From Gemmatimonadota bacterium (lineage in GTDB: Bacteria; Gemmatimonadota; Gemmatimonadetes; Palauibacterales; Palauibacteraceae): a stretch of DNA of 59,097 nt. Both the position numbers and the translations under genes were made by a program. Below, one piece after another: positions 4,895-53,581 of the stretch. The DNA is taken from contig JBGMQU010000001.1 of the NCBI GenBank assembly GCA_048060725.1, positions 55,996 to 115,092 of the forward strand, written 5' to 3'. A model generated the notes under the pieces. The model was not told the origin of the DNA. It did no database searches and was given only the letters and a program-made list of their open reading frames with translations. Position 1 is the first letter of the stretch. Every line of letters begins with the position of its first letter.

Positions 4895-5539
4895 TTATGC
4901 AGCGTACCAGAGGACCGCGAAGAAATGGCACACCGAACCCGTCAGCACGAAGAGGTGCCATACGAAATGGCTGTAGGGACGACGCGCGACGTAGAAGACC
5001 ACCCCGCCCGTGTACGCGAGTCCTCCCGCGGCGAGCCACAGGATGCCGTCGATCGGCACGCTCGTGACCAGCGGTTTGAACGCGATGACGATCAACCAGC
5101 CCATCAAGAGATAGAGCGCAGTGGACAGGCGCGGATAACGCACCCCTGCGACGAGCTTGTGGATAACGCCGATCGCGGCCGCGGCCCAGACGATCCCGAA
5201 CAGGGTCCACCCCCACGTGCCGCCGAGCACCCCGAGGGTAAACGGCGTGTAGGTGCCGGCGATCAGCAGATAGATGGCCGCATGGTCGAGCCTGCGCAGG
5301 CGCTGCTTGAGCGGGCTCGATGGCACCGCGTGGTACCACATCGACGACAGGTAGAGCAGGATGAGCGACACCCCGAAGACGGTGGCCCCGACGACGTTCG
5401 CCGTGCTCCCGCGTCCGGCCGCCTGCACCACGAGGATGGGCGTGGCGGCGAGCGCGCTGACGAAGCCGATGCCGTGGCTCAGGCTGTTCGCGAGTTCTTC
5501 GCGCGGACTGCGTTCGGTCTTCGTGGTGCCAGGGCTCAC
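4895..5539 (-). CDS. Hemolysin III / PAQR family membrane protein
   Basis: EELANSLSHG, SxxYH, DHAAIYLLIAGTYTPF, HFVWHLFVL. Confidence 0.93.
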   Translation of the reverse strand: MSPGTTKTERSPREELANSLSHGIGFVSALAATPILVVQAAGRGSTANVVGATVFGVSLILLYLSSMWYHAVPSSPLKQRLRRLDHAAIYLLIAGTYTPFTLGVLGGTWGWTLFGIVWAAAAIGVIHKLVAGVRYPRLSTALYLLMGWLIVIAFKPLVTSVPIDGILWLAAGGLAYTGGVVFYVARRPYSHFVWHLFVLTGSVCHFFAVLWYAA

Positions 5540-6003
5540 GTCAACTCCGTCTTCGGGCCGAGATGGTCATCGAAGATTGTCCGATGGGCCCGGTACGACC
5601 AGTCTCCATCCCGAGTGTAGTACTCCTCCACCCATTTCTGAAGATCCGCAAGATACGAGTTCTGCTGCTCGAGCGACTCATACTTCGCGGGCTCCCACGG
5701 GCGAGCACGGTTGTGGGCCTGACACACGTCCAGGCCGGGGTTGAGAAAAACGAGCTCCGAGCAATGCGGGGCCGCCGCCTTCACGAGCTCTCCGTAGCAG
5801 CCCTCGATCACCCACTCCGTGTTCGCCGACAGGAACTCGTCGAGCGATTCGAGGATCGCGTCTGCCGCACGCTGGACCGCGATCCGGTCCGGTTCCCAGA
5901 CGATCGAGTCGAGGTCGAGGTGGGGGAGGCCGTGGTCGCGAACCAGGCCTCTCGCGTACGTGGTTTTCCCCGAGCCGGAGTTGCCGAATACGAGCAGCCT
6001 CAT
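5536..6003 (-). CDS. Adenylate/shikimate kinase-like P-loop protein (FlaR-like)
   Basis: MRLLVFGNSGSGKTT Walker A, LDLD, WVIEG. Confidence 0.8.
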   Translation of the reverse strand: MRLLVFGNSGSGKTTYARGLVRDHGLPHLDLDSIVWEPDRIAVQRAADAILESLDEFLSANTEWVIEGCYGELVKAAAPHCSELVFLNPGLDVCQAHNRARPWEPAKYESLEQQNSYLADLQKWVEEYYTRDGDWSYRAHRTIFDDHLGPKTELT

Positions 6004-6079
6004 CGGTCTGTGCCTCCGCGCGAGCATCTACATCGCCCCGACGCGATCACGACACCACTGCAAGATCACTCACGCGAGG

Positions 6080-6853
6080 TCACTCGTCTGCATCCGCGAG
6101 GCGCACCGCGAGGACACGCGACCACAGCTTCCCGGTCAACAGAAGGACGCCTGTCTCGGGGATGTACGCGATCCCGTTGAGGACCGCATCGACTCCGCCC
6201 GGACGGCCGCCCATCAGCGAAAGCCCCGAGCCGTCGATCTCACCCGTCACGTCGCCCGTCGCCTTGTCGATCCTGACGATCCGGTCTGTCTGGTACACGT
6301 TGGCATAGATCTCATCGTCCAGGCACTCGAGTTCGTTGAGCCGCGGCACCGCGCGTCCGCCTGCCGTCACCGACACCTCTTCCAGTACCTCGAACGTGGA
6401 CGGGTCCCGACGGGTGAGCGTGCTGGTTCCATTTGACATGTAGAGCGACGCCCCGTCGTAGCAGAGGCCCCAGCCCTCTCCCTCGTACTCGTACTCCCGC
6501 GTCCGCTCGAGGGTCTCGAGATCGTAGACGAGCACCAGGCCGTCCTTCCACGTCAGCTGGTACAGCTCCGCGTCGACGAGAGCGAGTCCCTCGGCGAACA
6601 GCGTCGAGTCGACGGCCGTCCGTGCGACCACGCGACCCGACTCGATATCGACTTTGCGGAGGCTCGACGAGCCGTACTGCCCCGTGCTCTCGAACAGGTA
6701 ACCGTCGTGAAACAACAGGCCCTGCGTGTAGGCGCCCGCATCGTGTGGGAAGGTCGTCAGGATCTCGTACTCGAGAGTCGGGACCCGCGTCGCGCAGGCA
6801 GACAGGCCGACCAACGCGAAGACGGCACAGGCGGCGGGTCGAACGCTCCTCAC
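6080..6853 (-). CDS. Glutaminyl-peptide cyclotransferase (beta-propeller type), lipoprotein
   Basis: YTQGL, ESTGQYG, FAEGL, QLTW, EGWGLC, LNELE, VLNGIAY, TGKLW. GTG at 6853 overlaps the upstream stop (GTGA). Confidence 0.92.
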   Translation of the reverse strand: MRSVRPAACAVFALVGLSACATRVPTLEYEILTTFPHDAGAYTQGLLFHDGYLFESTGQYGSSSLRKVDIESGRVVARTAVDSTLFAEGLALVDAELYQLTWKDGLVLVYDLETLERTREYEYEGEGWGLCYDGASLYMSNGTSTLTRRDPSTFEVLEEVSVTAGGRAVPRLNELECLDDEIYANVYQTDRIVRIDKATGDVTGEIDGSGLSLMGGRPGGVDAVLNGIAYIPETGVLLLTGKLWSRVLAVRLADADE

Positions 6854-7452
6854 GGCCGGAGTCCGTGCCGCCAGAGACGCGTCTCGAGATGCTTCTGCAC
6901 GCCGGGCCATTCCGCGAGCAGGATCGAGTACATGACGTCGTCCCGGACGCTGCCGTCGGCCCGCAGCGAGTGGTTCCTGATCACGCCGTCCTTCTTCGCA
7001 CCGATCGCCTCGATCGCCCGCTGCGAACGAAGGTTGAGCCCGTCGGTGCGCAGCCCCACGACTCCGCACCCGAGCGCGTCGAACGCATATCCGAGAAGAA
7101 GCAGCTTGCACGCCGTGTTCACGTGCGTGCGGTGATGGCTCGCCCCGTACCACGTGTACCCGATCTCGACCCGGTCGGCGGCCGGGACGATGTCGTGGTA
7201 GCGTGTCGATCCGATCAGGCGCCCGGACTCGGTCTCCCGGACCGCCCACGGCAGCATGTGCCCGGCGGTCTGCCCCGCAAGCGCGTCCTCGATGTACTTC
7301 TGCGTCGCGTCGGGCGCGGGCACGAACGTGAAGAACAGGTCCCACAACTCGCCGTCCGCGGCCGCGGCCTGGAGACCGTCGTGGTGGGCCTCAGCGAGCG
7401 GCTCGAGGCGAACGCTGTGGCCCTCGAGAGTACTCGGTCGTGGTTCGATCAT
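6850..7452 (-). CDS. GNAT family N-acetyltransferase (RimJ/RimL-like)
   Basis: IGSTRY, VEIGYTW, NTACKLLLL, NLRSQRAIEAIGA. Confidence 0.9.
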   Translation of the reverse strand: MIEPRPSTLEGHSVRLEPLAEAHHDGLQAAAADGELWDLFFTFVPAPDATQKYIEDALAGQTAGHMLPWAVRETESGRLIGSTRYHDIVPAADRVEIGYTWYGASHHRTHVNTACKLLLLGYAFDALGCGVVGLRTDGLNLRSQRAIEAIGAKKDGVIRNHSLRADGSVRDDVMYSILLAEWPGVQKHLETRLWRHGLRP

Positions 7453-7501
7453 CGATTTGGTTCTCCACTTCGGCCACGGCGGGCGTTTGTCAGCCACCTG
7501 G

Positions 7502-7529
7502 CGGGGGATGATACGGTTATCATCCCCCG
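7502..7529. promoter_or_regulatory. Perfect 12-bp inverted repeat in a divergent intergenic region
   Basis: CGGGGGATGATA-cggt-TATCATCCCCCG between the GNAT start (7452, -) and the YaiI start (7569, +). Confidence 0.5.
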
Positions 7530-7568: not shown

Positions 7569-8027
7569 GTGAAGATCTGGGTCGACGCGGACGCGGCTCC
7601 ACGCGACGTCAAGGACATCGTTGCCCGTGCGGCTCAACGACTGGAGGTCGAGACGAGCTACGTCGCGAACCAGTCGCTCTACACGCCCCGTCACAATCCC
7701 TTCGTCGACGCGGTGGTCGTACACGGCGGGCCCGACGCGGCGGACGACCACATCGCCGAGCACGCAGAGATCGGGGACCTGGCGATCACCGCCGACATCC
7801 CGCTGGCCGCCAGACTGGTGGAGAAGGGTGTCGTGACGATCGACCCGCGCGGCACCGAGTACACGGAGGAGACCATCGGCGAGCGGCTTTCGGTCCGCGA
7901 CTTCATGGATCAACTGCGCTCATCGGGGGTCGAGACTGGTGGCCCCCGTGCCTACGGAGCCAGTTCGAAACAGGCGTTCGCCTCGACATTCGATCGCGTT
8001 CTGACCCGTCTGCTGCGGGCTCGCTGA
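7569..8027 (+). CDS. YaiI/YqxD family (UPF0178) protein
   Basis: KIWVDADA, DAADDHI, ITADIPLAA, GGP near the C-terminus. Confidence 0.92.
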   Translation: MKIWVDADAAPRDVKDIVARAAQRLEVETSYVANQSLYTPRHNPFVDAVVVHGGPDAADDHIAEHAEIGDLAITADIPLAARLVEKGVVTIDPRGTEYTEETIGERLSVRDFMDQLRSSGVETGGPRAYGASSKQAFASTFDRVLTRLLRAR

Positions 8028-8075
8028 TCACCCGTCTGCGCCGGGCCTCACGAACATAGGAAATGCTTTCCGGAA

Positions 8076-8870
8076 CTACGGGTTGCGGCTCGGCTTCCTC
8101 GCACGCAGGTGGAAGAAGTACGCGACGACCGTCGCGTCCTGGGCGTCCGGCCAGCGCTCGAGCGCCTCGTCGGACGGGATCGGCTCGGCTGTCCGCTCGA
8201 TCTGGAAGCCGGCATCGATCACGCCGTTGAGCCACTCGCTCATCGTGCTGTTGAACCGCGCGACCCTGAAGGGCTGGAGATCTTTCGTGTCCTCCGCAGG
8301 CGCACGGAACATCCACTCGAAGATCTCCCCGCCCATCGGCCGAAAATAGTCGCCGACCTCGACCGCGTAGGTGCTTCCGGTCTCGTCACGGAGATTTTCT
8401 CGGTGAGGCGTGTCGAAACAAGGGTGACAGATCGAGAACTGGAGAAATCCGCCGGGCCTCACGATGCGGAACGCCTCGCGCAGCGTTGCCGTCTTGTCGG
8501 GGATGTCCATCAGGCTCATGAACGCCGTCGCGAAATCGAACGCTTCGTCGGCGAACGGCAGCGCCATGGCGTTCGCGACCCGATACTCGATCCCGAGGGG
8601 CGATCCCAACTCGGCGGAGAGAGCGTGTTCGACGAACCTCCGCGACACGTCGATCGCCGTCATGCGCGCGCCGCGCCCCGCGATCAGCCGCGTGTTCGAC
8701 CCCTCGCCGCACCCGATGTCGAGTCCGTGCAGCCCCTCCACGTCGGGGAGCATTTCGAGAAACGCCGGCGTGTTGAACGAGTCGCGGTAGACATCGTAGC
8801 CAGCGCGCGAGAGTTGCGTCCACGCGTCGGCGTTGTCGTCCCACAATAGCCCGGCCGCGTAGTGGTCCAT
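8076..8870 (-). CDS. Class I SAM-dependent methyltransferase
   Basis: LDIGCGEG motif I, AIDVS, LRPGG-like segment. Confidence 0.9.
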   Translation of the reverse strand: MDHYAAGLLWDDNADAWTQLSRAGYDVYRDSFNTPAFLEMLPDVEGLHGLDIGCGEGSNTRLIAGRGARMTAIDVSRRFVEHALSAELGSPLGIEYRVANAMALPFADEAFDFATAFMSLMDIPDKTATLREAFRIVRPGGFLQFSICHPCFDTPHRENLRDETGSTYAVEVGDYFRPMGGEIFEWMFRAPAEDTKDLQPFRVARFNSTMSEWLNGVIDAGFQIERTAEPIPSDEALERWPDAQDATVVAYFFHLRARKPSRNP

Positions 8871-8872
8871 CT

Positions 8873-9271
8873 TCAGCCGCAGAGGAGCGCGGCGGTTTCC
8901 TGCTGGGCAGTGCTGGGACTGGCCGGCATTGCCAGGACGATGCCGCGGATCTTCTGGTCGTCGGGCAAGTGCATCAGTAACGGGCCGAGCGGCGGTGGCG
9001 CGTCAACAGCGCTCGCGAGTCCTTCCTCGTTCACCGCCCTGAGCGTTCCCGCGGCGAGTCGAGGCGCGAGCCAGATTCCGTAGTCGACCCAGACTCGGAC
9101 CGGGTCGTCTGCGCCATCGGCCACGTCTTCGACCTCGTCCCTGTACCGGACTACGGCCTCTTCGTACCCGGCGGCGTCCTGAGACTTCAAGCGGAGGAGG
9201 AGCTGCCGATAGAGCGGCTGGACGTCAGCCAACCCGTGCTTCGCGAGCGAATCCGAGTACGCGTCGCTCAC
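8873..9271 (-). CDS. Hypothetical protein
   Basis: 132 aa, protein-like composition, start overlaps the upstream stop (GTGA). Confidence 0.7.
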   Translation of the reverse strand: MSDAYSDSLAKHGLADVQPLYRQLLLRLKSQDAAGYEEAVVRYRDEVEDVADGADDPVRVWVDYGIWLAPRLAAGTLRAVNEEGLASAVDAPPPLGPLLMHLPDDQKIRGIVLAMPASPSTAQQETAALLCG

Positions 9272-9687
9272 TCGACCGAGTGCTCGTCGACGTACTCGAC
9301 GGACGCGGCCACCAGCTTCTCGAGCACGTCCAGGTCGATGTCTTCGAGGTTCTTGATGTAGAGGCAGGACTTGCCGGTCGTGTACTTCCCGAGCCTCTCG
9401 TATAGCTCCTGGTTTTTCCCCGTCCCGGCCATCATGTAGAGCGTGAGCGCATGCTTGCGTGGGGAGAACCCTGCCTGGAACCAGTCCCCCTCACGTCCGC
9501 TGGCATACTTGTAATGGTAGCTACCGAACCCGACGATCGACCCGCCCCACATCGTGGGCCCCAGGCCAGTCACCCGTTTCATCAGATCGAGAATCACCCT
9601 CGCGTCCTCGCGCCGTTTCTCGTTTTCCACGCCGTCGAGAAAGGCATCGACGTCCGCATCGTTCTGCCGAGTCTTCAATTCCGCCAT
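9268..9687 (-). CDS. DUF1801 domain protein
   Basis: MWGGSIVGFGSYHYKYASGREGDW, GFSPRK, LGKYTTGKSCLY. Confidence 0.9.
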   Translation of the reverse strand: MAELKTRQNDADVDAFLDGVENEKRREDARVILDLMKRVTGLGPTMWGGSIVGFGSYHYKYASGREGDWFQAGFSPRKHALTLYMMAGTGKNQELYERLGKYTTGKSCLYIKNLEDIDLDVLEKLVAASVEYVDEHSVE

Positions 9688-9729: not shown

Positions 9730-11022
9730 CTACTCGCCGCCCGCCATCGAGTCCATGAACTCCTCATTGTTCTCGGTCCGGTTCAACCGCTCGATCATGA
9801 ACTGGATCGCCTCGGTCGTGGTCATATCCGACAGGAAGTTTCGCAACAGGTACATGCGGTTCAGTTCCACGTCGGTGAGCAGCAATTCTTCCTTGCGCGT
9901 GCTCGATCGGCCCAGGTCGACCGCGGGGTAGATCCGCTTGTCGGCGATCTGGCGGTCGAGCAGGACCTCGCTGTTGCCGGTCCCCTTGAATTCTTCGAAG
10001 ATGACCTCGTCCATCCGGCTACCCGTCTCGATCAGTGCCGTAGCGATGATCGTCAGGCTTCCGCCCTCCTCGATATTGCGCGCGGCGCCGAAGAAGCGCT
10101 TCGGCTTGTGGAGCGCGTTCGCGTCGACGCCTCCGGAGAGGATCTTCCCGGAGTGCGGGACGGTCGTGTTGTATGCACGGGCGAGGCGGGTGATCGAGTC
10201 GAGCAGGATCACGACGTCGTGCTTGTACTCGACGAGACGCTTGGCCTTCTCGAGTACCATCTCGGCCACCTGGGTGTGACGGTCGGCCGGCTCATCGAAC
10301 GTAGAGGAGATGATCTCCGCCGGGACGTTTTCCTCCATGTCGGTGACTTCCTCGGGCCGCTCGTCGATGAGCAGCACGATCACGGTCACGTCCGGCTGGT
10401 TCTCGATGATCGCGTTCGCGATCTTCTGGAGGATGATCGTCTTCCCGGCCTTCGGCGGCGAAACAATCAGGCTCCGCTGGCCCCGCCCGATCGGCGCGAT
10501 CAGATCGAGAATCCGCATCGACACGTCGCCGTCCGACGTCTCGAGATGGAGCTTGTCCTCAGGATACCGCGGTCGAAGATTGTCGAATGCGATCCGGTGC
10601 TTCGCCTTCTCGGGATCGTCGTCATTCACCGTCTCGACCTTGAGCAGCGCCAGATACCGCTCGCCCTCCTTGGGCGGCCGTACCTGACCCTGGACCGTAT
10701 CGCCCGTGCGCATGTCGAAGCGCTTGATCTGTGACGGGGACACGTAGATGTCGTCGGGGCCGTAGAGGTAGTTCCAGTCCTGGCTACGGAGGAAGCCGTA
10801 GCCTTCCGGCAGGATCTCGAGGACACCCTCGCCTCGAAGCACCGTATCGCCATCGAGAAGATTCTGCTCGATGCGAAAGATCAGATCCTGTTTTCGGAGG
10901 CCGGAAAAGTTGGCCAGGTCGAGGTCTTCGGCCAACTCGTGAAGTTCGCCGATGGATTTCGATTTTAGTTCGGCGATGTCCACTGCGGTCTGCTCCCGTG
11001 AAGGGTGGATGTGGGTCGACAC
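9730..11022 (-). CDS. rho: Transcription termination factor Rho
   Basis: [57 protein letters not shown]. Start may be GTG 10983. Confidence 0.99.
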
Positions 11023-13917: not shown

Positions 13918-14919
13918 TTGAGTTCGGAAATCACGGACATCACGATCATCGGCGGGGGTCCGACGGGACTCTACGGCCTGTTCTACGCCGGAATGCGCGG
14001 GGTCTCCGCGCGGATTATCGACGTCCTGCCGGAGCTCGGCGGCCAGTTGACTGCGCTCTACCCCGAGAAGGACATCTTCGATGTGGCCGGATTCCCCCGG
14101 ATTCTCGCGAAAGATCTTGCCCGAGATCTCATCGAACAGGCTCTGCAGTTCGACGCCGAAGTCTGCCTCGAACGGCGGGTCAACTCGCTGAACCCCACCG
14201 GCGGCGTGTTCGAGCTCGAGACCGACGAGGGGGTGCTGCCGACACGATCCGTCGTGATCGCCGCGGGGAAGGGCGCCTTCAAGAGCCGTACGCTCAAGGT
14301 GGACCGGTGGGAGGAGTTCTGGAAGCGCGGGATCGTGACCCACGTGAAGGACCCCGAGGCGTTTCGAGACCGCCGCGTCCTGATCGTCGGAGGAGGCGAC
14401 TCCGCGTTCGACTGGAGCTGGGCGCTTCGGCACTACGCGAGCAAACTTACGCATATTCACCGGTCCGACCGGTTCCGCGCTCATGAGCGGACGGTCGAGC
14501 AGGTCGCGGGGGCCCACGAACGCGGCGAGTTGAGGTTGAGGACGTTCCACGAGGTGGGCGAAATCCACGGCGCGGATCGGATCGAAGGGGTTACTCTCGT
14601 CCAGACCAAGACGAAGGAGACCGAGCACCTCGAAGTCGACGACATTCTGGCGTTGATCGGGTTCGTGCCGAACATCGGCCCGATCGCCGAGTGGGGACTG
14701 GAGCTCGAGGGCAACGTGATCCGGGTCGACTCGCGCATGCGGACCAACATCCCCGGCGTGTACGCCGCAGGCGATATCGTGACGTATGAAGGTGCACTCG
14801 AACTGATCTCTACGGGATTCGGGGAGGCCGCGATCGCCGTGAACAACGCGGTGCATTTCATCGATCCGGATGCAAAAGTCGACCCGGGCCACTCTACGAG
14901 TTCGAAAGCTTTCAAGTAG
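13918..14919 (+). CDS. Ferredoxin-NADP(+) reductase / TrxB-like FAD oxidoreductase
   Basis: IGGGPTG, GGQLTALYPEK, GGGDSAFDW (no CxxC), YAAGDI. TTG start. Confidence 0.9.
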   Translation: MSSEITDITIIGGGPTGLYGLFYAGMRGVSARIIDVLPELGGQLTALYPEKDIFDVAGFPRILAKDLARDLIEQALQFDAEVCLERRVNSLNPTGGVFELETDEGVLPTRSVVIAAGKGAFKSRTLKVDRWEEFWKRGIVTHVKDPEAFRDRRVLIVGGGDSAFDWSWALRHYASKLTHIHRSDRFRAHERTVEQVAGAHERGELRLRTFHEVGEIHGADRIEGVTLVQTKTKETEHLEVDDILALIGFVPNIGPIAEWGLELEGNVIRVDSRMRTNIPGVYAAGDIVTYEGALELISTGFGEAAIAVNNAVHFIDPDAKVDPGHSTSSKAFK

Positions 14920-44948: not shown

Positions 44949-45998
44949 GTGGCGGACGGGGTCCTTTCCAGAAAAACGTTTTGCGCGACGCGATCGCGAC
45001 GCGCCGTGATCGCTGTCGGTGTGTTCGGGTTGCTCTCCGTCGTTTTCTCAACGACGACGCTCACAGCGCAGACTCATGAAGTCACCGTTGATGGCGAAAC
45101 GTTCCGAAAGACTGCCGACGGAAGACGTCTCGCCGACCTGGGACTAGGGCTGCAGGTGGAACTGGTTCGCTCGGCGGGGGCCTGGGTCGAGGTGTCGTTT
45201 GCGGGTTGGGTTCCCACGTCTGCGCTCGCGGCGACAAACCGGGAGGGCCATGACCGGATCATCACCCGTGTGGGCGGTCAGAATTTGCACGCGGCGCCGT
45301 CGGGCGGAGTGTCGGGCCGTCTGCTCCAGGGCCTTCTCCTCGATCATGTATCCGATCGCGACTCGTGGACTCAGGTGAGCAGATCCGGGTGGGTGAGGAT
45401 GAGTTCGCTCCGGCCGATTTCGGCTACCGACCGTTCGTTCGCTCGTCCCACGACGACCCCTGACGTCGAAAGACCGCCCGCGCTCGTCTCCTCTGGCCGC
45501 CGGTTGTTGATCGGCGAAGAGGCGATCGACGTGCTGGGGTCTCCGGATGGGGATACGGTCGCCGTCGTGCGATCCGGCACGCCGATAACGGTCGTAGAGC
45601 GGGGGAATTCGTGGACGCGCGTCCGCGTCGAGGGGTGGGTGCGCTCAGACCGACTCGTGACCACCGATCTGGATTCTGCCCTGGCCGAGGTGTCCGCCGC
45701 GAGTTTGCGCGCGAGTCCGGATGACTACGTCGGCCTCCGCCTGCGGTGGACCGTTCAGTTTGTGGCGTTGGAACGCGCGGAGCCGGAGCGCACGGATTTT
45801 TACGAGGGCGAGCCGTTCATCCTCGCGAGAGCGCCCGACCCGGCGGATGGGTTCGTCTACATGACGGTACCGCCGGACCTGCTCGCGGCAGTGGAGGGAC
45901 TGACGCCACTGGACATGATCGACGTGCTCGCCCTGGTGAGGACGGGCCGGTCGGCGTTGATGGGCGTTCCCGTGCTCGATCTTCTCGCGTTGTTTTGA
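44949..45998 (+). CDS. Secreted multi-SH3b domain protein
   Basis: Signal peptide; repeated W-x-x-V-x-x-x-GWV motifs. Start uncertain. Confidence 0.75.
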   Translation: MADGVLSRKTFCATRSRRAVIAVGVFGLLSVVFSTTTLTAQTHEVTVDGETFRKTADGRRLADLGLGLQVELVRSAGAWVEVSFAGWVPTSALAATNREGHDRIITRVGGQNLHAAPSGGVSGRLLQGLLLDHVSDRDSWTQVSRSGWVRMSSLRPISATDRSFARPTTTPDVERPPALVSSGRRLLIGEEAIDVLGSPDGDTVAVVRSGTPITVVERGNSWTRVRVEGWVRSDRLVTTDLDSALAEVSAASLRASPDDYVGLRLRWTVQFVALERAEPERTDFYEGEPFILARAPDPADGFVYMTVPPDLLAAVEGLTPLDMIDVLALVRTGRSALMGVPVLDLLALF

Positions 45999-46204
45999 TG
46001 AAGAGTCGGAAGAAGCGGACGAGACGTCCGATAACCGAGTCCGGCGTCGTTATGCCCGGGCCCCGCAAGACGACGGAATCACGAAAACGACGCATACGAA
46101 TCATCTGGGTCGTGACCGTGATCGTGATCATCGCGATCGGTTGGCTCGGATACCGGGAACTCGCGGGTTCCATCGATCGTACGGTGGAGTTCAGCGGCCC
46201 CTGA
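45998..46204 (+). CDS. Small single-TM protein
   Basis: TGATG coupling; basic N-terminus followed by IIWVVTVIVIIAIGWLGY. Confidence 0.65.
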   Translation: MKSRKKRTRRPITESGVVMPGPRKTTESRKRRIRIIWVVTVIVIIAIGWLGYRELAGSIDRTVEFSGP

Positions 46205-46230
46205 TACCGGGGCAGCCTCGCACGCCGCCC

Positions 46231-46270
46231 GGCGTTTACCCCCCACAGTCGGGCGTTTACCCCCACAGTC
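46231..46270. repeat. Tandem ~20-bp direct repeat
   Basis: GGCGTTTACCCCCCACAGTC followed by GGCGTTTACCCCCACAGTC (C6 vs C5). Confidence 0.85.
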
Positions 46271-46300
46271 TGTTGCGCGTCACAGCACGAAGGCTATGTT
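46270..46300 (+). promoter_or_regulatory. Candidate sigma70 promoter with overlapping CTGT-N8-ACAG (LexA-like) box
   Basis: CTGTtgcgcgtcACAG at 46270-46285; TTGCGC-N16-TATGTT. Confidence 0.5.
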
Positions 46301-46350
46301 CTCCGGCCCGACTTTCGGGGTTTATTCGGTTTCTGTTCTGGAGGGTCCTC

Positions 46351-47637
46351 ATGATCTCCCCCAAAATTCGACCTCGTGGCAGCCGGATGGCGCTGTGTAT
46401 CTGGTGGCCGGGGTTCGAGCTTCAACTCGAACGCGCACGGGCTCCCGACCTCGTTGGGCTCCCGCTCGCGTTGTCGGATGCCGGCGCGGGAACTCGACGC
46501 TTTATCGAGCAGGCATGCCCGATCGCCGCTGCCGAAGGCGTCCAGGCGGGGATCCCCGTCTCACAGGCGATCGCTCTGTGTCCCTCGATCGTCCTTCTCG
46601 AACAGGATCCGGATTTTTACGATGCCGCCCGCCAGCGCGTGCTCGATATTCTGAACGGGTGGAGCCCGGTCGTAGAACTTTCGGGCGACAGAGGACGACT
46701 GTTCGTCGGCGTCGACGGACTCGATCGGCTGTATGGTTCTCCAGAGAGACAACTCGACGATCTTCGTCGCCGTTTGAGAGAGCGGTTCCCCCCGCGGTTG
46801 CTCATCGACGTTCGGTTCGGCTATGCGCCGGGAAAGTTCGCCGCCTGGGTGGCGGCACGCGCAGCGCGCCCGGGAGATGACACGCTCATCATGCGCCAAC
46901 AACTCGCATCGTTTCTCTCGAGTCAGCCCGTCGACGTCCTCCCCGTATCGCCTCGCATGGTGCAGCGACTGAAGCGTCTCGGTGTCGAGCGGCTCGAGCG
47001 GCTGGTCCAGATTCCGGAGCCGGCGCTCGTAGCCCAGTTCGGCGCGGATGGACGGCGAGCGCTCGCGTGGGCTACCGGGGCGAGGGTCGATCCGGTCCAG
47101 CTTCAGCTGCCGGAGCGCCCGATCAAAATGTCGCTCGACTTCCCAGTACCCATCGGTCACCTCGAACTCCTGTATTCGGCGCTCGACCGGTTGTTGGGGA
47201 GGGCGCTCAAACGGTCGAGGAAGAGCGGCCGAAGCGTGCGGGGGGTCCGGCTCGGGGCCCGGCTGGAGGACGGCGGTTCCTGGGCGATTCGAGCGATTCT
47301 CAAGGATCCGACAAGCCGGATCGAAAGGTTGAGCGCATTTGTTCGTTCACGAATCTCGTTGTCGCCGCCCGGTAGAGCAGTCGAGGAGTTGACGCTGGAG
47401 TTCTTTCAATTTGGCCCCTCCGCATCTCAGTTCGATCTGTTCGATTCGAAGGGGAACGCGCCTCGCACCCGCGGATCGATCGAGACGAGCGAGGGCGACG
47501 TGCTTCCCGAGCTGCAGAGGGCGTCCCGTCTACTGAAGCTCCGTCTCGGTGAAGGGGTCCTCTTTCGTGTGCTCGAGCTCCAACCCGAGTCGAGAATTCC
47601 TGAGCGGCGACATGCCCTGATGGAACTCGCATCGTGA
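46351..47637 (+). CDS. imuB: ImuB-like inactive Y-family polymerase
   Basis: AAAEGVQAGIPVSQAIALCP, WSPVVE, VDGLDRLYG, LKRLGVERL, QFDLF clamp-binding-like motif. Confidence 0.88.
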   Translation: MISPKIRPRGSRMALCIWWPGFELQLERARAPDLVGLPLALSDAGAGTRRFIEQACPIAAAEGVQAGIPVSQAIALCPSIVLLEQDPDFYDAARQRVLDILNGWSPVVELSGDRGRLFVGVDGLDRLYGSPERQLDDLRRRLRERFPPRLLIDVRFGYAPGKFAAWVAARAARPGDDTLIMRQQLASFLSSQPVDVLPVSPRMVQRLKRLGVERLERLVQIPEPALVAQFGADGRRALAWATGARVDPVQLQLPERPIKMSLDFPVPIGHLELLYSALDRLLGRALKRSRKSGRSVRGVRLGARLEDGGSWAIRAILKDPTSRIERLSAFVRSRISLSPPGRAVEELTLEFFQFGPSASQFDLFDSKGNAPRTRGSIETSEGDVLPELQRASRLLKLRLGEGVLFRVLELQPESRIPERRHALMELAS

Positions 47638-47653
47638 CCCGCCTATTCGGGCG

Positions 47654-47923
47654 ATGACATCCGGAGCGTCGGGGAAGCTCAGGCCGCTCAACCGGCCGCG
47701 ACCCGTGCAGGTCGTGGCGGACGGTCACGGGGTGCCGACGAAGGTCCGCACCCGCGGTCGCATGAAGCAGGTGACCGCGATCCTCGAAACATGGCGAATC
47801 GATGATGAATGGTGGAGGAAAGTGATTTCGCGCGCCTATTTCTCGCTCCTTTTCGAGGACGGAGGCCACCTTACGGTCTACCACGATCTCGTCGAAGGTC
47901 GCTGGTATTGTCAGCCGGAATGA
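47654..47923 (+). CDS. Small DUF6504-like protein (resembles the ImuB C-terminal domain)
   Basis: LRPLNRPRPVQV, WRIDDEWW, R-x-YF, GRWY; ATGA overlap with dnaE2. Confidence 0.8.
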   Translation: MTSGASGKLRPLNRPRPVQVVADGHGVPTKVRTRGRMKQVTAILETWRIDDEWWRKVISRAYFSLLFEDGGHLTVYHDLVEGRWYCQPE

Positions 47924-50900
47924 ACGAGTACGTAGAGCTCCATGCCCACTCTGCCTACTCATTCCTCGATGGTGCATCTCGACCGGGGGAACTCGCGCTT
48001 CGTGCAGCGGAGTTCGGCTACCGGTCGTTCGCGCTGACCGACCACGACGGACTCTACGGTTCGCTGGAGTTCGCCCACGCTGCCCACTCGTTCGGGATCC
48101 ACCCGATCACCGGTGCCGAAGTGACGTTCGAGTCCCCCTTCGAGGACGAAGAGGAGTTCTTCCCGATGGCGGGGCGTGGTCGAATCGACGCGAGCACGAG
48201 ACCGGACGAGACGGGTCCGCGATACCACATGACGGTCCTGGCCGAAACTCCCGCCGGATACGCGAACCTGTGTCGCCTGATCACACGCGCGCACATGGAG
48301 AACGAGCGCGGAGATCCACGCGTCTCGATCGAGGCGTTACTCGCGCGTCCCGAAGGCCTGATCGTGCTGACAGGCTGTCGACGCAGCCCCCTGTTGGCGG
48401 CGATCGACCGTGGTACACGCGAGGCCGAGACGCTGCTCGGTCGACTGCAGGACGTATTCGGCCCGCGGAATCTCTTCGTCGAGCTTCAGCACAACTCCGT
48501 ACATGGCGACCGCGCCCGGATGAAGGCCCTCGGGGCGTTGGCTGACCGGTTTCGCGTCCCCGTCGTCGCGACCGGGAACGTCCACTATCACGATCGAGAT
48601 CGTCACCGTCTCCAGGATGTGTTCGTCGCGATCCGGAACCGGACGACCGTCGATGATTCACACGAGTTGAGGCGTCCGAACTCGTGCTTCCATCTCGCGA
48701 CGGCCAACGAGATGGCCTGGAGGTTCGAGACTCGTCCCGACGCGATTTCGAACTCGCTCGCCATTGCGGAGCGGTGCCTCGAGTTCGACCTGACTCGCGA
48801 TCTCGGGTACGAGTTTCCGGATTTCGTCGGACGCGGACGCGTGCCGGCGATCCGGGTGCTTGCGGAAGTCTGCCACGCCGCGCTCGACGTGCGATATCCG
48901 CCTGGTTGTCACGATCGAAAAGAAGCGGAAGCGAGGATCGAGGAGGAAATATCGCTCATCGATCGACACGATCTCGCGGGGTTCTTCCTCGTTTACCGTG
49001 ACATCCTCAACCTCGCCCGAGAGGTCGCGACCCGGGTTCGCGGCGGTTCCGAGCCTCGTTCACTCCTTCCTCCGGGGCGAGGACGCGGGTCATCGGTATC
49101 ATCGATCGTCTGCTACCTGATCGGTCTTTCGCACGTCGACCCGGTGCGCACGAACCTCTATCTCGGCCGTTTTCTCAACGATGCCATGGGGAGCGTCCCC
49201 GACATCGATATCGACTTTCCCCGGGACATCCGGGAGCAGTTGATCCTCGCGGTGTATGAACGCTACGGGCACGACCACGTGGGGCTCGTATGCACGTTTC
49301 CGACGTACCGCACGCGCTCGATCGTCCGGGAGATCGGAAAGGCGCTCGGTCTTCCCATGGGCGACATCGAGAAACTCGCGAAGCTGGCCGATCCGCAGGA
49401 AGACGGGATCGCGGGTGAGCTGGCCCGGCTCGTCGACTTTCGCACCCGCCTCGATGCCGCGCCGTGGCGTGCGTTTGCCGAGTTGACCGAAGAGATCAGG
49501 GGACTGCCTCGACACATCTCGCAGCATGTGGGCGGGATGATCATCTCGAGTCGGCCGCTCAATGAGCTGGTCCCGCTGGAGCCCGCGGCGTGGGAGGGGC
49601 GGATCCTGTGTCAGTGGGACAAGGATTCCTGTGATGATGCCGGGTTCATCAAGATCGATTTTCTCGCGCTCGGGATGTTGTCGCTCGTGGAAGAGGCGGT
49701 CGAGCTGATCGCAGACCGTCACGGTGAGGCGCCCGACCTCTCGCGGATCGATTATGAAGACGAAGAGATCTACGACCGGATCTGTTCGGGTGACACGGTC
49801 GGGCTATTTCAGGTGGAAAGCCGGGCGCAGATCCAGATGCTCCGCCGCGTGCGGCCCCGGAATCTGGCCGATCTGTCCGTCCAGGTCGCGATCGTTCGTC
49901 CGGGTCCAATCGTGGGTGGCGCGGTGAACCCGTATGTCCGCCGCCGGGAGCGGGTCCGGGAAGATCCGAACTACGTCATCCCCTACGATCACCCGTTGCT
50001 CGAAGAGGCGCTCGGAGAGACGCTCGGTGTGATCATCTTCCAGGACCAGGTCCTTCAGGTTTGCAGAGCGCTCGCCGGGTTTACCGATGGCCAGGCGGAG
50101 GGGCTGCGTCGTGCGATGAGCCGCAAGCGCTCGAAGGAGGCGCTCCTCGAATACTGGGAAGCGTTTCACAAGGGAGCCGGGGAGCGAGGCGTCGATCGCC
50201 CCACTGCGCAGAAGATCTTCCAACAGGTCGTCGCGTTTTCGGAGTTCGGTTTCCCGAAGTCGCACGCGGCAGCATTCGGGTTGCTCGCCTTCCAATCGGC
50301 GTGGCTCCGCGAACGCTACCCCACCGAGTACTACGTCTCGTTGTTCAATAACCAACCGATGGGGTTCTACTCGCTCGATGCGATCGGACGAGACGCGAGG
50401 CGGCACGACATCGGAGTTCGACTGCCGGATCTCAACCTTAGCGGCGTACGCTGCGTTGCCGAGGAGGAGGATCTCCGTGTGGGGTTGGGGTTCGTTCGGG
50501 AATGGGGGACGGACGTCGCCGAGCGGGTCGTGTGCGAGCGCGAAGAGCACGGGGCGTTTCTCTCGTTACCCGATTTTCTACGCCGGACGCCCGCGGCCCT
50601 GAAGAGAGGCGCGATCGAGAATCTGATCTGGGTCGGGGGGCTGGACTCGCTCGGGCTCGACCGCCGGGAGCTGCTATGGCAGACAGGCCTGTGGCTTGGC
50701 CCGGAGACCGAAACCGACACTCAGCGGCGGCGTCGCGAAATGGCGACCAGCAGTGTCGGGATCGTTCGGGAACGCGCTCCCATTCGAGGCCGGTCGTCGA
50801 CCGACCGTGCGGATCATTATCAGACGGAACTGCAGTTCGACGAACCGTACGCCGACATCGAGTTCGCCGGTACCAGCGATATGGAGCGACTCACCGCAGA

Positions 50901-51387
50901 GTACCGGATCCTCTCCTTCGCGGCGAAACACCACCCGTTCGCGCTCGTTCGTGACCGATTGCCGAGAGGGACCGTGTCATCGAGAACCTTTGCGGTATTG
51001 CCGAACAAGACCGGGGTACGAGTGGCCGGGATCGTGGTTGCCCGGCAACGGCCGCACACTGCGAAGGGCTACATTTTCATCCTCATGGAAGACGAGGCCG
51101 GACCGATCAACGCGATTGTACGCCCCGAGATCTACGAAAAATGTAAACGTGCCATTCGTCTCGAGCCGTTTCTCCAGATCGACGGGACGCTTCAAAAAGA
51201 TGGCGCGACCTTCAACGTGCTCGTGGCCTCGGTCCGCGCGTTACGGTTGGAGAGGGAGCGGGTGCCGGCGTTCCCGAATCCGGGTCGGGTCGGGTCGGTC
51301 GATGATGGCTCATTCGCCTACCTCGATACGCTTCGACAGTCCCCTCCTCCGACCATGAGTTGGGGAAGCGGCGCAGGTCGCGGATAG
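47920..51387 (+). CDS. dnaE2: Error-prone DNA polymerase III alpha DnaE2 (ImuC)
   Basis: ELHAHSAYSFLDGAS, ALTDH, GRGSSVSS, PDIDIDF, HISQHVGG, QVESRAQ, GFPKSHAA, NQPMGFYS. Confidence 0.97.
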   Translation: MNEYVELHAHSAYSFLDGASRPGELALRAAEFGYRSFALTDHDGLYGSLEFAHAAHSFGIHPITGAEVTFESPFEDEEEFFPMAGRGRIDASTRPDETGPRYHMTVLAETPAGYANLCRLITRAHMENERGDPRVSIEALLARPEGLIVLTGCRRSPLLAAIDRGTREAETLLGRLQDVFGPRNLFVELQHNSVHGDRARMKALGALADRFRVPVVATGNVHYHDRDRHRLQDVFVAIRNRTTVDDSHELRRPNSCFHLATANEMAWRFETRPDAISNSLAIAERCLEFDLTRDLGYEFPDFVGRGRVPAIRVLAEVCHAALDVRYPPGCHDRKEAEARIEEEISLIDRHDLAGFFLVYRDILNLAREVATRVRGGSEPRSLLPPGRGRGSSVSSIVCYLIGLSHVDPVRTNLYLGRFLNDAMGSVPDIDIDFPRDIREQLILAVYERYGHDHVGLVCTFPTYRTRSIVREIGKALGLPMGDIEKLAKLADPQEDGIAGELARLVDFRTRLDAAPWRAFAELTEEIRGLPRHISQHVGGMIISSRPLNELVPLEPAAWEGRILCQWDKDSCDDAGFIKIDFLALGMLSLVEEAVELIADRHGEAPDLSRIDYEDEEIYDRICSGDTVGLFQVESRAQIQMLRRVRPRNLADLSVQVAIVRPGPIVGGAVNPYVRRRERVREDPNYVIPYDHPLLEEALGETLGVIIFQDQVLQVCRALAGFTDGQAEGLRRAMSRKRSKEALLEYWEAFHKGAGERGVDRPTAQKIFQQVVAFSEFGFPKSHAAAFGLLAFQSAWLRERYPTEYYVSLFNNQPMGFYSLDAIGRDARRHDIGVRLPDLNLSGVRCVAEEEDLRVGLGFVREWGTDVAERVVCEREEHGAFLSLPDFLRRTPAALKRGAIENLIWVGGLDSLGLDRRELLWQTGLWLGPETETDTQRRRREMATSSVGIVRERAPIRGRSSTDRADHYQTELQFDEPYADIEFAGTSDMERLTAEYRILSFAAKHHPFALVRDRLPRGTVSSRTFAVLPNKTGVRVAGIVVARQRPHTAKGYIFILMEDEAGPINAIVRPEIYEKCKRAIRLEPFLQIDGTLQKDGATFNVLVASVRALRLERERVPAFPNPGRVGSVDDGSFAYLDTLRQSPPPTMSWGSGAGRG

Positions 51388-51989: not shown

Positions 51990-52376
51990 ATGCGACCGCG
52001 ACAGACAGGTGACGATTCGGTTCTGAAGCTGATTCATGCCTCGATGCTGGGTGGCACGCTGGTCCTTTTCGCAGTCGCGTTTTTCCTCTATGGCGGCAGG
52101 GAACCCGGCGAAGTGGGTGCGGTAGTCCGCTGGGCCTGGCTTGCCGTCGCCGTCGCGGTCGTCTTCGCGGTCGGCGCGGTGCGGGGACGTTTGCACCGCA
52201 ATTCGGACGAGGCTCAGGTCCGGATGTCGGGGATCGTGATCTGGGCGCTCGCGGAGGGCGCCGCGCTGGTGGGGATCGTGTCGACCATCATGACAGGCCA
52301 TGTCGTGCCCGCGATCGGAGCTACCCTGATCGGGGTGTTCCTGATGTTGCACCACCGGCCTTCTCAGCTCGGCTGA
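51990..52376 (+). CDS. Hypothetical membrane protein (4 TM)
   Basis: Four hydrophobic segments, WALAEG. Confidence 0.7.
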   Translation: MRPRQTGDDSVLKLIHASMLGGTLVLFAVAFFLYGGREPGEVGAVVRWAWLAVAVAVVFAVGAVRGRLHRNSDEAQVRMSGIVIWALAEGAALVGIVSTIMTGHVVPAIGATLIGVFLMLHHRPSQLG

Positions 52377-52406
52377 TCACGCGTGCCGGTCGGCCCGATC
52401 GTCCGA

Positions 52407-52628
52407 TCAGCCATCGATGGCGGCAAACACCTCGTCGTGCTCAGCGTGCCGCCCGGTAGCCTTCTTGGAGTATACGAGTCGACCATCGGCGGTGACCTCG
52501 AATCTTCCGCCGAGCGACTCGATCAATTCCACGGACATGTCGTCGTACCGTTCCTCGAGTGCGGCCGCCAAACTGGCGGCTCGGGGTCGGTAGTTTCAGA
52601 CGACGCAGTATTCGATCGTAATGTTCAT
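52407..52628 (-). CDS. Selenoprotein W-like (Rdx/SelT/SelW/SelH family), 73 aa with Sec at codon 11
   Basis: Manual translation MNITIEYCVV-TGA-NYRPRAASLAAALEERYDDMSVELIESLGGRFEVTADGRLVYSKKATGRHAEHDEVFAAIDG. The Rdx-family sequence continues on both sides of the TGA at 52596-52598. Confidence 0.9.
52564..52580 (-). promoter_or_regulatory. Bacterial SECIS-like hairpin
   Basis: mRNA GCCGCCA-GUU-UGGCGGC begins 15 nt after the UGA; the apical loop starts with G followed by U. Confidence 0.7.
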
Positions 52629-52689
52629 GCGGACATGTTCGGGAATGGATCGCGATCGATCAAGTCCGCGCTCCGGTTCAGGGCGGCTG

Positions 52690-52717
52690 GAAGGCTGTTG
52701 AAGAAGTACAGTGGGTC
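52690..52717 (+). repeat. Dispersed 28-bp repeat, copy 1
   Basis: GAAGGCTGTTGAAGAAGTACAGTGGGTC; 25/28 identical to 58903-58930. Confidence 0.8.
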
Positions 52718-53581
52718 ATGACGTCGACGGTCCCGTCCGGCCCCGCCCACTCCGACGCGCTCGTGGTCCCGACCGCCGTCGCGCCCGTGCGGCGTGATCC
52801 GGCGCACGGTTCGGAACTGGTTTCGCAGTGGGTTCTCGGCGAGATCGTGCGCGTCGACGATATCGAAGGGGGGTGGGTCCGGGCGCGGGGGGCCGACGGG
52901 TACGCGGGCTGGACTCCGCGTGCTCCGTTTCGTCGAACGGTCTTCGCCACCGAGGATTGGGACGCGGCCGCGACACTCCTCTCGATGGGCACGTACGTGG
53001 ACGAGAAGGCGGACCCCGCCGGTGATGGGCACTGTCTCGAACGCTTGCCGTGGGGTGCCCGTCTGCGGCGCGCCGATTCGGGCGGTACGGGGGTCACCCT
53101 GCCTGATGGTCGAACGGTGACGCCACTGTCGCTCGAGCGTGTCGTTGCACAGCCCGGGTCGGCGAACCCCCCGCCGATCCCCCACGGGTTGGGGGAGACG
53201 GTTGCGCGCCTCGCCGGCCACTGGCCCGGCGTTCCCTATCTCTGGGGCGGGCGCACCGATCTGGGCGTGGATTGCTCGGGCTTCGTCCAGGCGGTGTTCG
53301 CGAGCGTCGGCATCCGGCTGCCTCGCGACAGCCACCAGCAGGCCGAGGCCCACCCCGATCTGCGAGGTTCCGGAGTGGCGACGGAGCCTGGCGACCTTCT
53401 GTTCTTCGCCCCGGACGAGGCTACGATCACGCACGTCGCGCTCGCGCTCGGTGGCTCACGGATCATTCATGCGGCGTCGAGCAACGGGTCGGTACGCGAG
53501 GATGATCTCGACACGGACACTTCGCTGAGCGCACTGTTGACACGCTCGATCGTCCGACACACCCGCCCGTGGGCCGGCTGA
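52718..53581 (+). CDS. SH3b + NlpC/P60 (C40) peptidase, YkfC-like
   Basis: SELVSQWVLGE, DGYAGW, PYLWGG, DCSG, LPRDSHQQ, GDLLFF, THVAL, IHA. Confidence 0.93.
   Translation: MTSTVPSGPAHSDALVVPTAVAPVRRDPAHGSELVSQWVLGEIVRVDDIEGGWVRARGADGYAGWTPRAPFRRTVFATEDWDAAATLLSMGTYVDEKADPAGDGHCLERLPWGARLRRADSGGTGVTLPDGRTVTPLSLERVVAQPGSANPPPIPHGLGETVARLAGHWPGVPYLWGGRTDLGVDCSGFVQAVFASVGIRLPRDSHQQAEAHPDLRGSGVATEPGDLLFFAPDEATITHVALALGGSRIIHAASSNGSVREDDLDTDTSLSALLTRSIVRHTRPWAG

Follow-up and report, generated by a model that had tools for sequence, protein, structure and literature searches.

Does a short minus-strand frame that is interrupted by a TGA encode a selenoprotein? The frame occupies positions 52407-52628 of a 59,097-nt stretch of contig JBGMQU010000001.1 from a Palauibacterales-like member of the Gemmatimonadota; this whole stretch is called the window below. 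A sequence-only reading had proposed that the frame is a hidden gene related to selenoprotein W (SelW), with a selenocysteine (Sec) codon followed by a hairpin resembling a selenocysteine insertion sequence (SECIS). Our analysis makes it very likely that a functional gene for a SelW-like selenoprotein, with a SECIS, is present at this locus, and the in-frame TGA most likely encodes selenocysteine, as judged from comparison with homologs. The parts of the locus are as follows.

52407..52628, minus strand: coding sequence of the probable SelW-like (Rdx family) selenoprotein, complete, 73 codons plus stop; defined by translation, profile hidden Markov models (HMMs) and the ratio of non-synonymous to synonymous divergence (pN/pS)
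52626..52628, minus strand: ATG start codon, at a Met column shared with L001, L002, L003 and L005
52605..52607, minus strand: Cys8 codon TGC, first residue of the C-x-x-U redox motif, from translation
52596..52598, minus strand: in-frame TGA, proposed selenocysteine codon 11, aligned with Cys in homologs
52564..52580, minus strand: bacterial SECIS (bSECIS)-type hairpin GCCGCCA-GUU-UGGCGGC, with a 7-bp stem and the loop GUU at 52571-52573; encodes A17-A-S-L-A-A22
52407..52571, minus strand: TTG-started 54-aa open reading frame (ORF), an annotation artefact; the only entry of the ORF list at this locus, with its TTG inside the hairpin
52407..52409, minus strand: terminal TGA stop of the SelW-like gene, from translation

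The proposal that a 222-nt minus-strand frame is missing from the ORF track proved exact to the base, and the ORF list holds only the 54-aa remnant. Translation of 52407-52628 gives MNITIEYCVV*NYRPRAASLAAALEERYDDMSVELIESLGGRFEVTADGRLVYSKKATGRHAEHDEVFAAIDG*, where the asterisks stand for TGA; with U written for the first of them, the product has 73 residues. The frame 5' of the ATG is not conserved, and a stop is present there in L002. The 15 nt between the in-frame TGA and the hairpin read AACUACCGACCCCGA, and the hairpin itself was found just where it had been placed, at 52564-52580, with the described GCCGCCA/UGGCGGC stem and GUU loop.

Assignment to the Rdx/SelW family held when the read-through translation was compared with profile HMMs, for which the TGA was written as Cys. 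The product scored 75.5 bits on Pfam Rdx PF10262 (E 3.9e-21, cut-off 22.6), in a match that spans the TGA and takes in profile positions 1-73 of 74, and it also exceeded the cut-offs of the NCBIfam equivalog NF041051, "SelT/SelW/SelH family (seleno)protein" (97.8 bits, cut-off 88), and of TIGR02174 CXXU_selWTH (66.7 bits, cut-off 34.2). The 54 aa downstream of the TGA, which lack strand beta1 and the CxxU motif, reached 42.3 bits on Rdx when scored alone. The gain to 75.5 bits upon addition of the ten codons 5' of the TGA therefore indicates that these codons carry real family signal. Sequence matches in the PDB were to the bacterial SelW-related proteins 2FA8, 2OBK, 2OKA, 3DEX and 2P0G, to MIEN1, and to mouse SelW (2NPB), with E values of 2e-7 to 1e-3 for the solved bacterial SelW-related CxxC proteins. 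The TGA column corresponds to the second Cys of the CxxC motif in solved structures (2FA8, 2OBK, 2LJK).

The fold was judged by proxy, with the Cys-form homolog P0004 (57% identical) modelled in place of the window protein. The model has a predicted local distance difference test score of 95.3 and consists of beta1 (2-8), the CxxC motif, alpha1 (14-27), beta2, beta3, beta4 and a final alpha helix. It aligned to 2FA8 with a template modelling (TM) score of 0.90, and to 2FA8 and its relatives with TM scores of 0.89-0.93 and a root-mean-square deviation of about 1.2 A; the next-best structural matches were mouse SelW and thioredoxins. By this model, the window protein is predicted to adopt a thioredoxin-like beta-alpha-beta-beta-beta-alpha fold in which the motif C8-V-V-U11 directly follows strand beta1 and precedes helix alpha1. 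To our knowledge, the function of bacterial Rdx/SelW-like members has not been established; for the window protein we infer a thiol-dependent oxidoreductase function and a physiological substrate.

Related loci show what occupies the TGA column. The DNA of L001-L008 reads M-x-x-[TSA]-I-E-[YF]-C-V-V, an in-frame TGA, and then N-Y. The syntenic loci L001, L002, L003/L004 and L005 retain the TGA together with its upstream frame and the hairpin, as do the non-syntenic L006-L008, and Cys8 is invariant both in the alignment of homologous proteins and in all Rdx-like metagenome ORFs. Cys is aligned to the TGA in P0004, in P0013, in Nitrospirota homologs (four genomes) and in the CxxC proteins of the PDB, and the codon is TGT in L009, TGC in L012, and one or the other throughout L009 and L012-L016. 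As had been anticipated of a true Sec position, the column holds either Cys (L009, L012-L016 and the PDB relatives) or TGA (L001-L008), and alignment of these sequences demonstrates the equivalence of Cys and TGA at codon 11.

The TGA form is widespread, with at least 120 metagenome loci recovered by the pattern I-E-[YF]-C-x-x-TGA-N-Y, which requires the TGA; nearly all of them have a full Rdx-type ORF. This bears on whether faulty sequencing or assembly produced the TGA from a TGC or TGT in what would be an ordinary CxxC Rdx protein. A single substitution separates TGA from either Cys codon, and Cys forms do exist (L009, L012-L016), but independent assemblies of different samples agree on a TGA at this column, namely L001-L008 and the further loci found with the TGA-containing pattern. 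We give an error of this kind almost no credence.

It might also be asked whether a standard amino acid is inserted at the UGA, either because the code is reassigned (to Trp as in table 4 or to Gly as in table 25) or because near-cognate suppression places Cys or Trp there. Two database entries, P0005 and P0006, do give W at this codon. However, the W is a gene-caller artefact, since the DNA reads TGA and the locus under table 11 does not give the stored protein. In a codon-usage-based map of 64 genes in the window, TGA is the commonest stop (TGA 38, TAG 22, TAA 4). Full-length genes verified with Pfam, namely those for the ETF alpha subunit, XdhC, MoeA and FabH, end in TGA, as does the SelW-like gene. 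A recoded genetic code is excluded because TGA is the main stop codon and ends this very gene. Decoding by a standard amino acid would, moreover, leave the conserved SelB-type G-U of the hairpin loop (see below) without a role, and we regard it as highly improbable.

We turn to the hairpin that follows the TGA. It is 17 nt long, begins 15 nt past the TGA, places its loop 22 nt from the UGA, and has a predicted stability of -12.0 kcal/mol; the loop can also be read as A-GUU-U. In the published bSECIS model, 3-9 nt form the loop, the upper stem has 4-16 bp, the loop lies 16-37 nt from the UGA, and the minimum free energy (MFE) is at most -7.5 kcal/mol; one of the first two bases of the loop is a G, most often within N-G-[G/U]-N-N, whose outer bases pair (PMC13188914). 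The window hairpin lies within every one of these bounds, which bears out its earlier description as a SECIS-like hairpin with an apical G. Taken alone, the hairpin is weak evidence: at -12.0 kcal/mol it ranks 24th among the window's TGA-following hairpins, and its folding z-score is -2.75. What gives it significance is that it is conserved in relatives and covaries there.

Among nine close homologs, the five third codon positions inside the hairpin are 100% identical, whereas identity at third positions elsewhere is 46-54%. Two rare codons make up the loop: AGT, at 4.3% of Ser codons, and TTG, at 9.2% of Leu codons. An alignment of 118 distinct TGA-form sequences runs without a gap over 54 nt from the UGA. 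The SelW SECIS keeps one fixed register across phyla; this register dictates the first turn of helix alpha1. When columns 19-25 were paired with columns 29-35, 88.3% of the cells were paired, compared with 73.7% in shuffled alignments, and cells with compensatory double changes numbered 104 compared with 29, with double changes at six of the seven pairs. None of 500 shuffles reached the observed pairing or the observed count of double changes, and sliding the register gave at most 52% pairing. RNAalifold, supplied with no structure, returned a 5-bp core (columns 20-24 with 30-34) as the sole consensus helix. The loop residues G26 and U27 are more than 90% conserved. A loop G-U is the element recognised by SelB in characterised bacterial SECIS elements.

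These data also speak to the possibility that the hairpin is not a SECIS at all and is either a by-product of encoding the Ala-rich helix start A-A-S-L-A-A or an RNA element with some other role. GCN Ala codons that flank a short spacer pair readily, such hairpins are common in G+C-rich DNA, and Cys and Arg forms of the gene retain the hairpin. Nevertheless, pairing survives even where the encoded peptide is wholly different, with stems such as GCCACCA/UGGUGGC, GCCUCCG/UGGAGGC and GCGGCCG/UGGCCGC and with the peptides ALRARA (GCCCUCC-GUG-CGAGGGC), EFDRVS in low-G+C marine sequences (UUUGAYC-GUG-URUCAAA) and ATSLVE. Covariation far exceeds that of the shuffled and slid controls. Synonymous sites do not change, the codons chosen are rare ones, and the position, loop size and G-U all fit the published model (PMC13188914). 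In addition, the more distant Cys forms in four Nitrospirota genomes have no such hairpin at the SECIS register. We therefore consider a mere coding by-product, or an unrelated RNA role, most improbable.

Some members of the family depart from the window's hairpin. In the window and in L001-L003, the MFE fold of 52545-52592 (window positions) adds outer helices, with UACCG/CGGUA encoded by Tyr-Arg ... Arg-Tyr. Since L005 and most of the 118 sequences lack this extension, it looks lineage-specific or fortuitous. The low-G+C marine loci L025, L067, L070, L091, L093, L108, L117 and L126, which share IE[YF]C[IVE]K-TGA-NY.PEF[DE]RVS, keep the family SECIS register. Their stem is all A/U-rich, with a predicted stability of -2 to -4 kcal/mol that falls short of the -7.5 kcal/mol cut-off, and a search with the published bSECIS model would therefore miss them. 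A 113-aa SelW-like variant (L082:2648-2990, L098, L106 and L135) reads IEYCEK-TGA-NYLPRVKMLIDKADAAYPGKF... and has an insertion of roughly 40 residues. It pairs at only three to four of the seven positions in the family register; a longer-range helix, CCGCGUU...GACGCGG, is predicted instead, and this variant may use another SECIS geometry.

Several observations weigh against a functional selenoprotein gene at this locus. At 65% G+C, 8.8% of the 1346 TGA trinucleotides in the window pass loose bSECIS criteria. There was no Rfam match in the window at the gathering threshold, and no SECIS family at E<=10 in 52350-52750. The hairpin is still present in close homologs that carry TGT, AGA or CGA at the Sec column, so its presence is no proof of current Sec decoding. 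Finally, selA, selB, selD and a tRNA-Sec gene were all absent from the 59-kb window and from roughly 10-kb flanks of the closest relatives. For the window, this agrees with the sequence-only reading, which had seen no sel machinery there: ARAGORN reported no tRNA genes at all, a tblastn search with E. coli SelA, SelB and SelD gave no match, and no Sec machinery was seen among 20 large ORFs compared with Pfam. As for Rfam, the miss reflects the library's coverage of bacterial SECIS elements and does not count against function. Because no Rfam model covers the SelW-specific SECIS, our alignment of 118 sequences, register-fixed and with covariation, could seed one.

The close homologs L009:488-715, L010:434-661 and L011:362-604 have TGT (Cys), AGA (Arg) and CGA (Arg), respectively, each one substitution away from TGA, and the SECIS hairpin is intact in all three. 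The L009 and L010 proteins are 89% identical and the codons at this column differ at two of three bases, which fits a separate origin of each from TGA. CxxU/CxxC redox chemistry cannot be retained by the Arg forms.

Could the window gene be decaying? In that case Sec decoding would have been lost, the TGA would end translation once 10 residues had been joined, and the internal TTG would yield a 54-aa fragment at most. The absence of Sec machinery from the window is consistent with this, gene callers choose the 54-aa ORF, and the swap of TGA for TGT, AGA or CGA in related lineages, with the hairpin kept, indicates that Sec loss does occur in the family. On the other hand, the TGA, the ten codons upstream and the hairpin are kept in five syntenic Gemmatimonadota relatives in which about half of the synonymous sites have changed. 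Between the window and these relatives the proportion of synonymous sites that differ (pS) is 0.35-0.63, pN/pS is 0.08-0.45, and there are no frameshifts. Comparison with L002 over the ten codons 5' of the TGA shows two synonymous differences and no non-synonymous ones. The 54-aa fragment, furthermore, would be without strand beta1 and the redox motif. We judge decay to be very unlikely, and a working selenoprotein gene remains our preferred interpretation.

Elsewhere in the family, the SelW-like gene is found next to the Sec genes. In 19 TGA-form metagenome loci, among the matches listed, a tRNA-Sec gene adjoins the SelW-like gene, and selD, selA or selB is present as well in most of these loci, where the contig extends that far. 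They have about 52-65% G+C and come from lineages other than the window's. In this clade (L028, L020, L021, L023, L024, L032, L043, L051, L056, L063, L079, L096, L102, L103, L110, L116, L118, L123 and L127) the SelW-like gene lies directly upstream of tRNA-Sec, and its product has a C-terminal G-[DE]-W/F-P-D motif. The layout of one locus is as follows:

L028:4572-9456, all on one strand, in order: SelW-like gene; tRNA-Sec, 4958-5050; selD, 5148-6173; selA, 6224-7513; selB, 7570-9456

The selD gene itself has an in-frame TGA at the column of E. coli Cys17, within SSCAG-TGA-ASK, in the four loci that were read (L021, L028, L103, L123). Because the SelW-like gene heads a cluster of tRNA-Sec, selD, selA and selB in one clade, these data suggest that SelW-like proteins and the Sec pathway are functionally linked. 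The stronger idea that SelW-like proteins are tied to selenium handling for that pathway, and are not generic redox proteins, seems to us rather unlikely. Together, purifying selection on the gene and this family-level link to the sel genes lend indirect support to Sec decoding. A scan of the window for other in-frame TGAs with coding signal on both sides yielded no second selenoprotein gene; the candidates were rejected as adjacent genes that share a frame or as antisense shadows.

From the sequence evidence, we infer that Sec insertion takes place in this organism and that SelB binds the hairpin. The ribosome would meet the UGA at codon 11, where the hairpin at 52564-52580 would act as a bacterial SECIS that presents its apical-loop G-U 22 nt from the UGA. 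By tethering SelB-GTP-Sec-tRNA(Sec), the SECIS would cause Sec to be inserted with no termination. The predicted product would have a thioredoxin-like fold with C8-V-V-U11 between beta1 and the N-terminus of alpha1; as this motif cycled between the selenolate/thiol and selenenylsulfide states, the protein would serve as a small thiol-dependent oxidoreductase. The putative SECIS RNA would also encode the start of helix alpha1 (AASLAA), and because of this the RNA structure and the protein sequence would constrain each other.

What does the locus mean for existing annotation? Automatic annotation had been expected to drop or truncate the gene, and the stored relatives show just that. P0001-P0003, P0008 and P0010 (from L001-L005) are held in public collections as 53-54-aa fragments that begin at a TTG or ATG inside the SECIS, and P0005 and P0006 (L006-L008) are stored full-length with W at the TGA column; an NCBI entry from a metagenome-assembled genome (MAG), named "Rdx family protein", is among the misannotated relatives. 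Mis-annotation of the SelW-like family in public protein collections is systematic. Since the gene and its relatives are stored as fragments or with Trp at the Sec position, catalogues of this lineage's redox proteins or selenium use are wrong at this locus.

SelW-like proteins are among the commonest bacterial selenoprotein families, and the locus is therefore an annotation repair and not a discovery; none of it changes what is known about selenoproteins. The SELENOW-like family (PF10262, CxxU) is listed among prokaryotic selenoprotein families "predicted with high confidence" in a 2026 review (PMC13188914), and SelW-like was the most abundant family in the Global Ocean Sampling (GOS) marine metagenomes, with 427 Sec forms and 56 Cys forms (PMC2398784). 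For this lineage, the locus is probably the first sign of selenocysteine use. If our interpretation is true, it would provide the first evidence that marine Palauibacterales (Gemmatimonadota) decode selenocysteine, and the gene would imply that this Palauibacterales-like lineage needs selenium and carries Sec machinery. Literature searches on selenium use in Gemmatimonadota or Palauibacterales returned nothing specific, and selenium is not mentioned in a paper on Palauibacterales ecogenomics (PMC10469786) or in one on Gemmatimonadota comparative genomics (PMC11596202).

The genes around the SelW-like gene stand in the order glutamate dehydrogenase, ACPS, NlpC/P60, SelW-like, membrane protein, cupin, DnaE2 and ImuB, and L001, L002, L003 and L005 share this order as far as their contigs reach. 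No hint of function comes from the neighbours (NlpC/P60, the small membrane protein, the cupin and the dnaE2-imuB cassette). Features outside the gene itself are listed here.

52629..52717, no strand assigned: divergent intergenic region of 89 bp between the SelW-like and NlpC/P60 genes, the presumed promoter region
52630-52641: near-palindrome CGGACATGTTCG, abutting the SelW-like start codon
52718-53581, plus strand: NlpC/P60 gene
47920-51387: DnaE2 (PHP and DNA_pol3_alpha domains), preceded by small ORFs
13918-14919: pyridine nucleotide-disulphide oxidoreductase, 333 aa, resembling thioredoxin reductase in size and domain type

Neither a sigma-70-type consensus promoter nor an intrinsic terminator was found around the SelW-like gene. 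The near-palindrome is perfect in L002 (CGAACATGTTCG), present in L001, and absent in L003 and L005. It is not enriched elsewhere in the window, where 7 matches at no more than 2 mismatches compare with 3.6 expected, and it could be a lineage-specific operator or a chance occurrence. A LexA-type operator linking the SelW-like gene to dnaE2-imuB was considered and rejected, as the motif shows no enrichment elsewhere and does not occur upstream of the cassette. Synteny in L001, L003 and L005 extends to this error-prone polymerase cassette, which is at about 45000-51387, two genes from the SelW-like gene. An ImuB-like gene with an IMS domain precedes DnaE2 in the syntenic relatives; the DnaE2 and ImuB domain assignments are precomputed Pfam hits of those relatives.

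The thioredoxin-reductase-like gene is 38 kb from the SelW-like gene and not linked to it; its product could be an electron donor system for small thioredoxin-fold proteins. As to the origin of the window, its Rho protein (9730-10983) is 90-95% identical to Rho of Gemmatimonadota MAGs and of Candidatus Palauibacter, and a Gemmatimonadetes MAG is the source of P0010, the closest named SelW-like relative.

How, then, does the window gene compare with systems that are already known? The E. coli fdhF-type SECIS is likewise a stem-loop immediately 3' of the UGA within the ORF, with a G-U in its apical loop that the C-terminal domain of SelB recognises. The window element differs in its unrelated primary sequence, in showing no evident bulged U, and in lacking an Rfam match. 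Eukaryotic SECIS elements are located in the 3' untranslated region and have another structure. Mammalian SelW (2NPB) and MIEN1/C17orf37 (2LJK) belong to the same Rdx superfamily and share the fold, and SelW has its CxxU at the matching column, but they are about 21-22% identical to the modelled Cys-form homolog P0004. Reported partners of mammalian SelW include glutathione and 14-3-3 proteins, which are known for the mammalian protein only.

The bacterial proteins of solved structure, 2FA8 (Atu0228), 2OBK, 2OKA, 2P0G, 3DEX and 2OJL, have the redox motif at the same position and match the P0004 model with the TM scores of 0.89-0.93 given above; they differ in having Cys at the second motif position and in being 20-30 residues longer. 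A further comparison is with the bacterial SelW-like selenoproteins (PF10262/TIGR02174/NF041051). These share a length of about 70-80 aa, an N-terminal I-E-Y-C-x-x-U followed by G-G-x-F-E-V and S-K, a thioredoxin-like fold, and a SECIS hairpin inside the coding sequence just past the UGA. The window locus is not adjacent to sel genes or to other selenoprotein genes. The window copy, from a Palauibacterales-like member of the Gemmatimonadota, is no different in kind from these selenoproteins.

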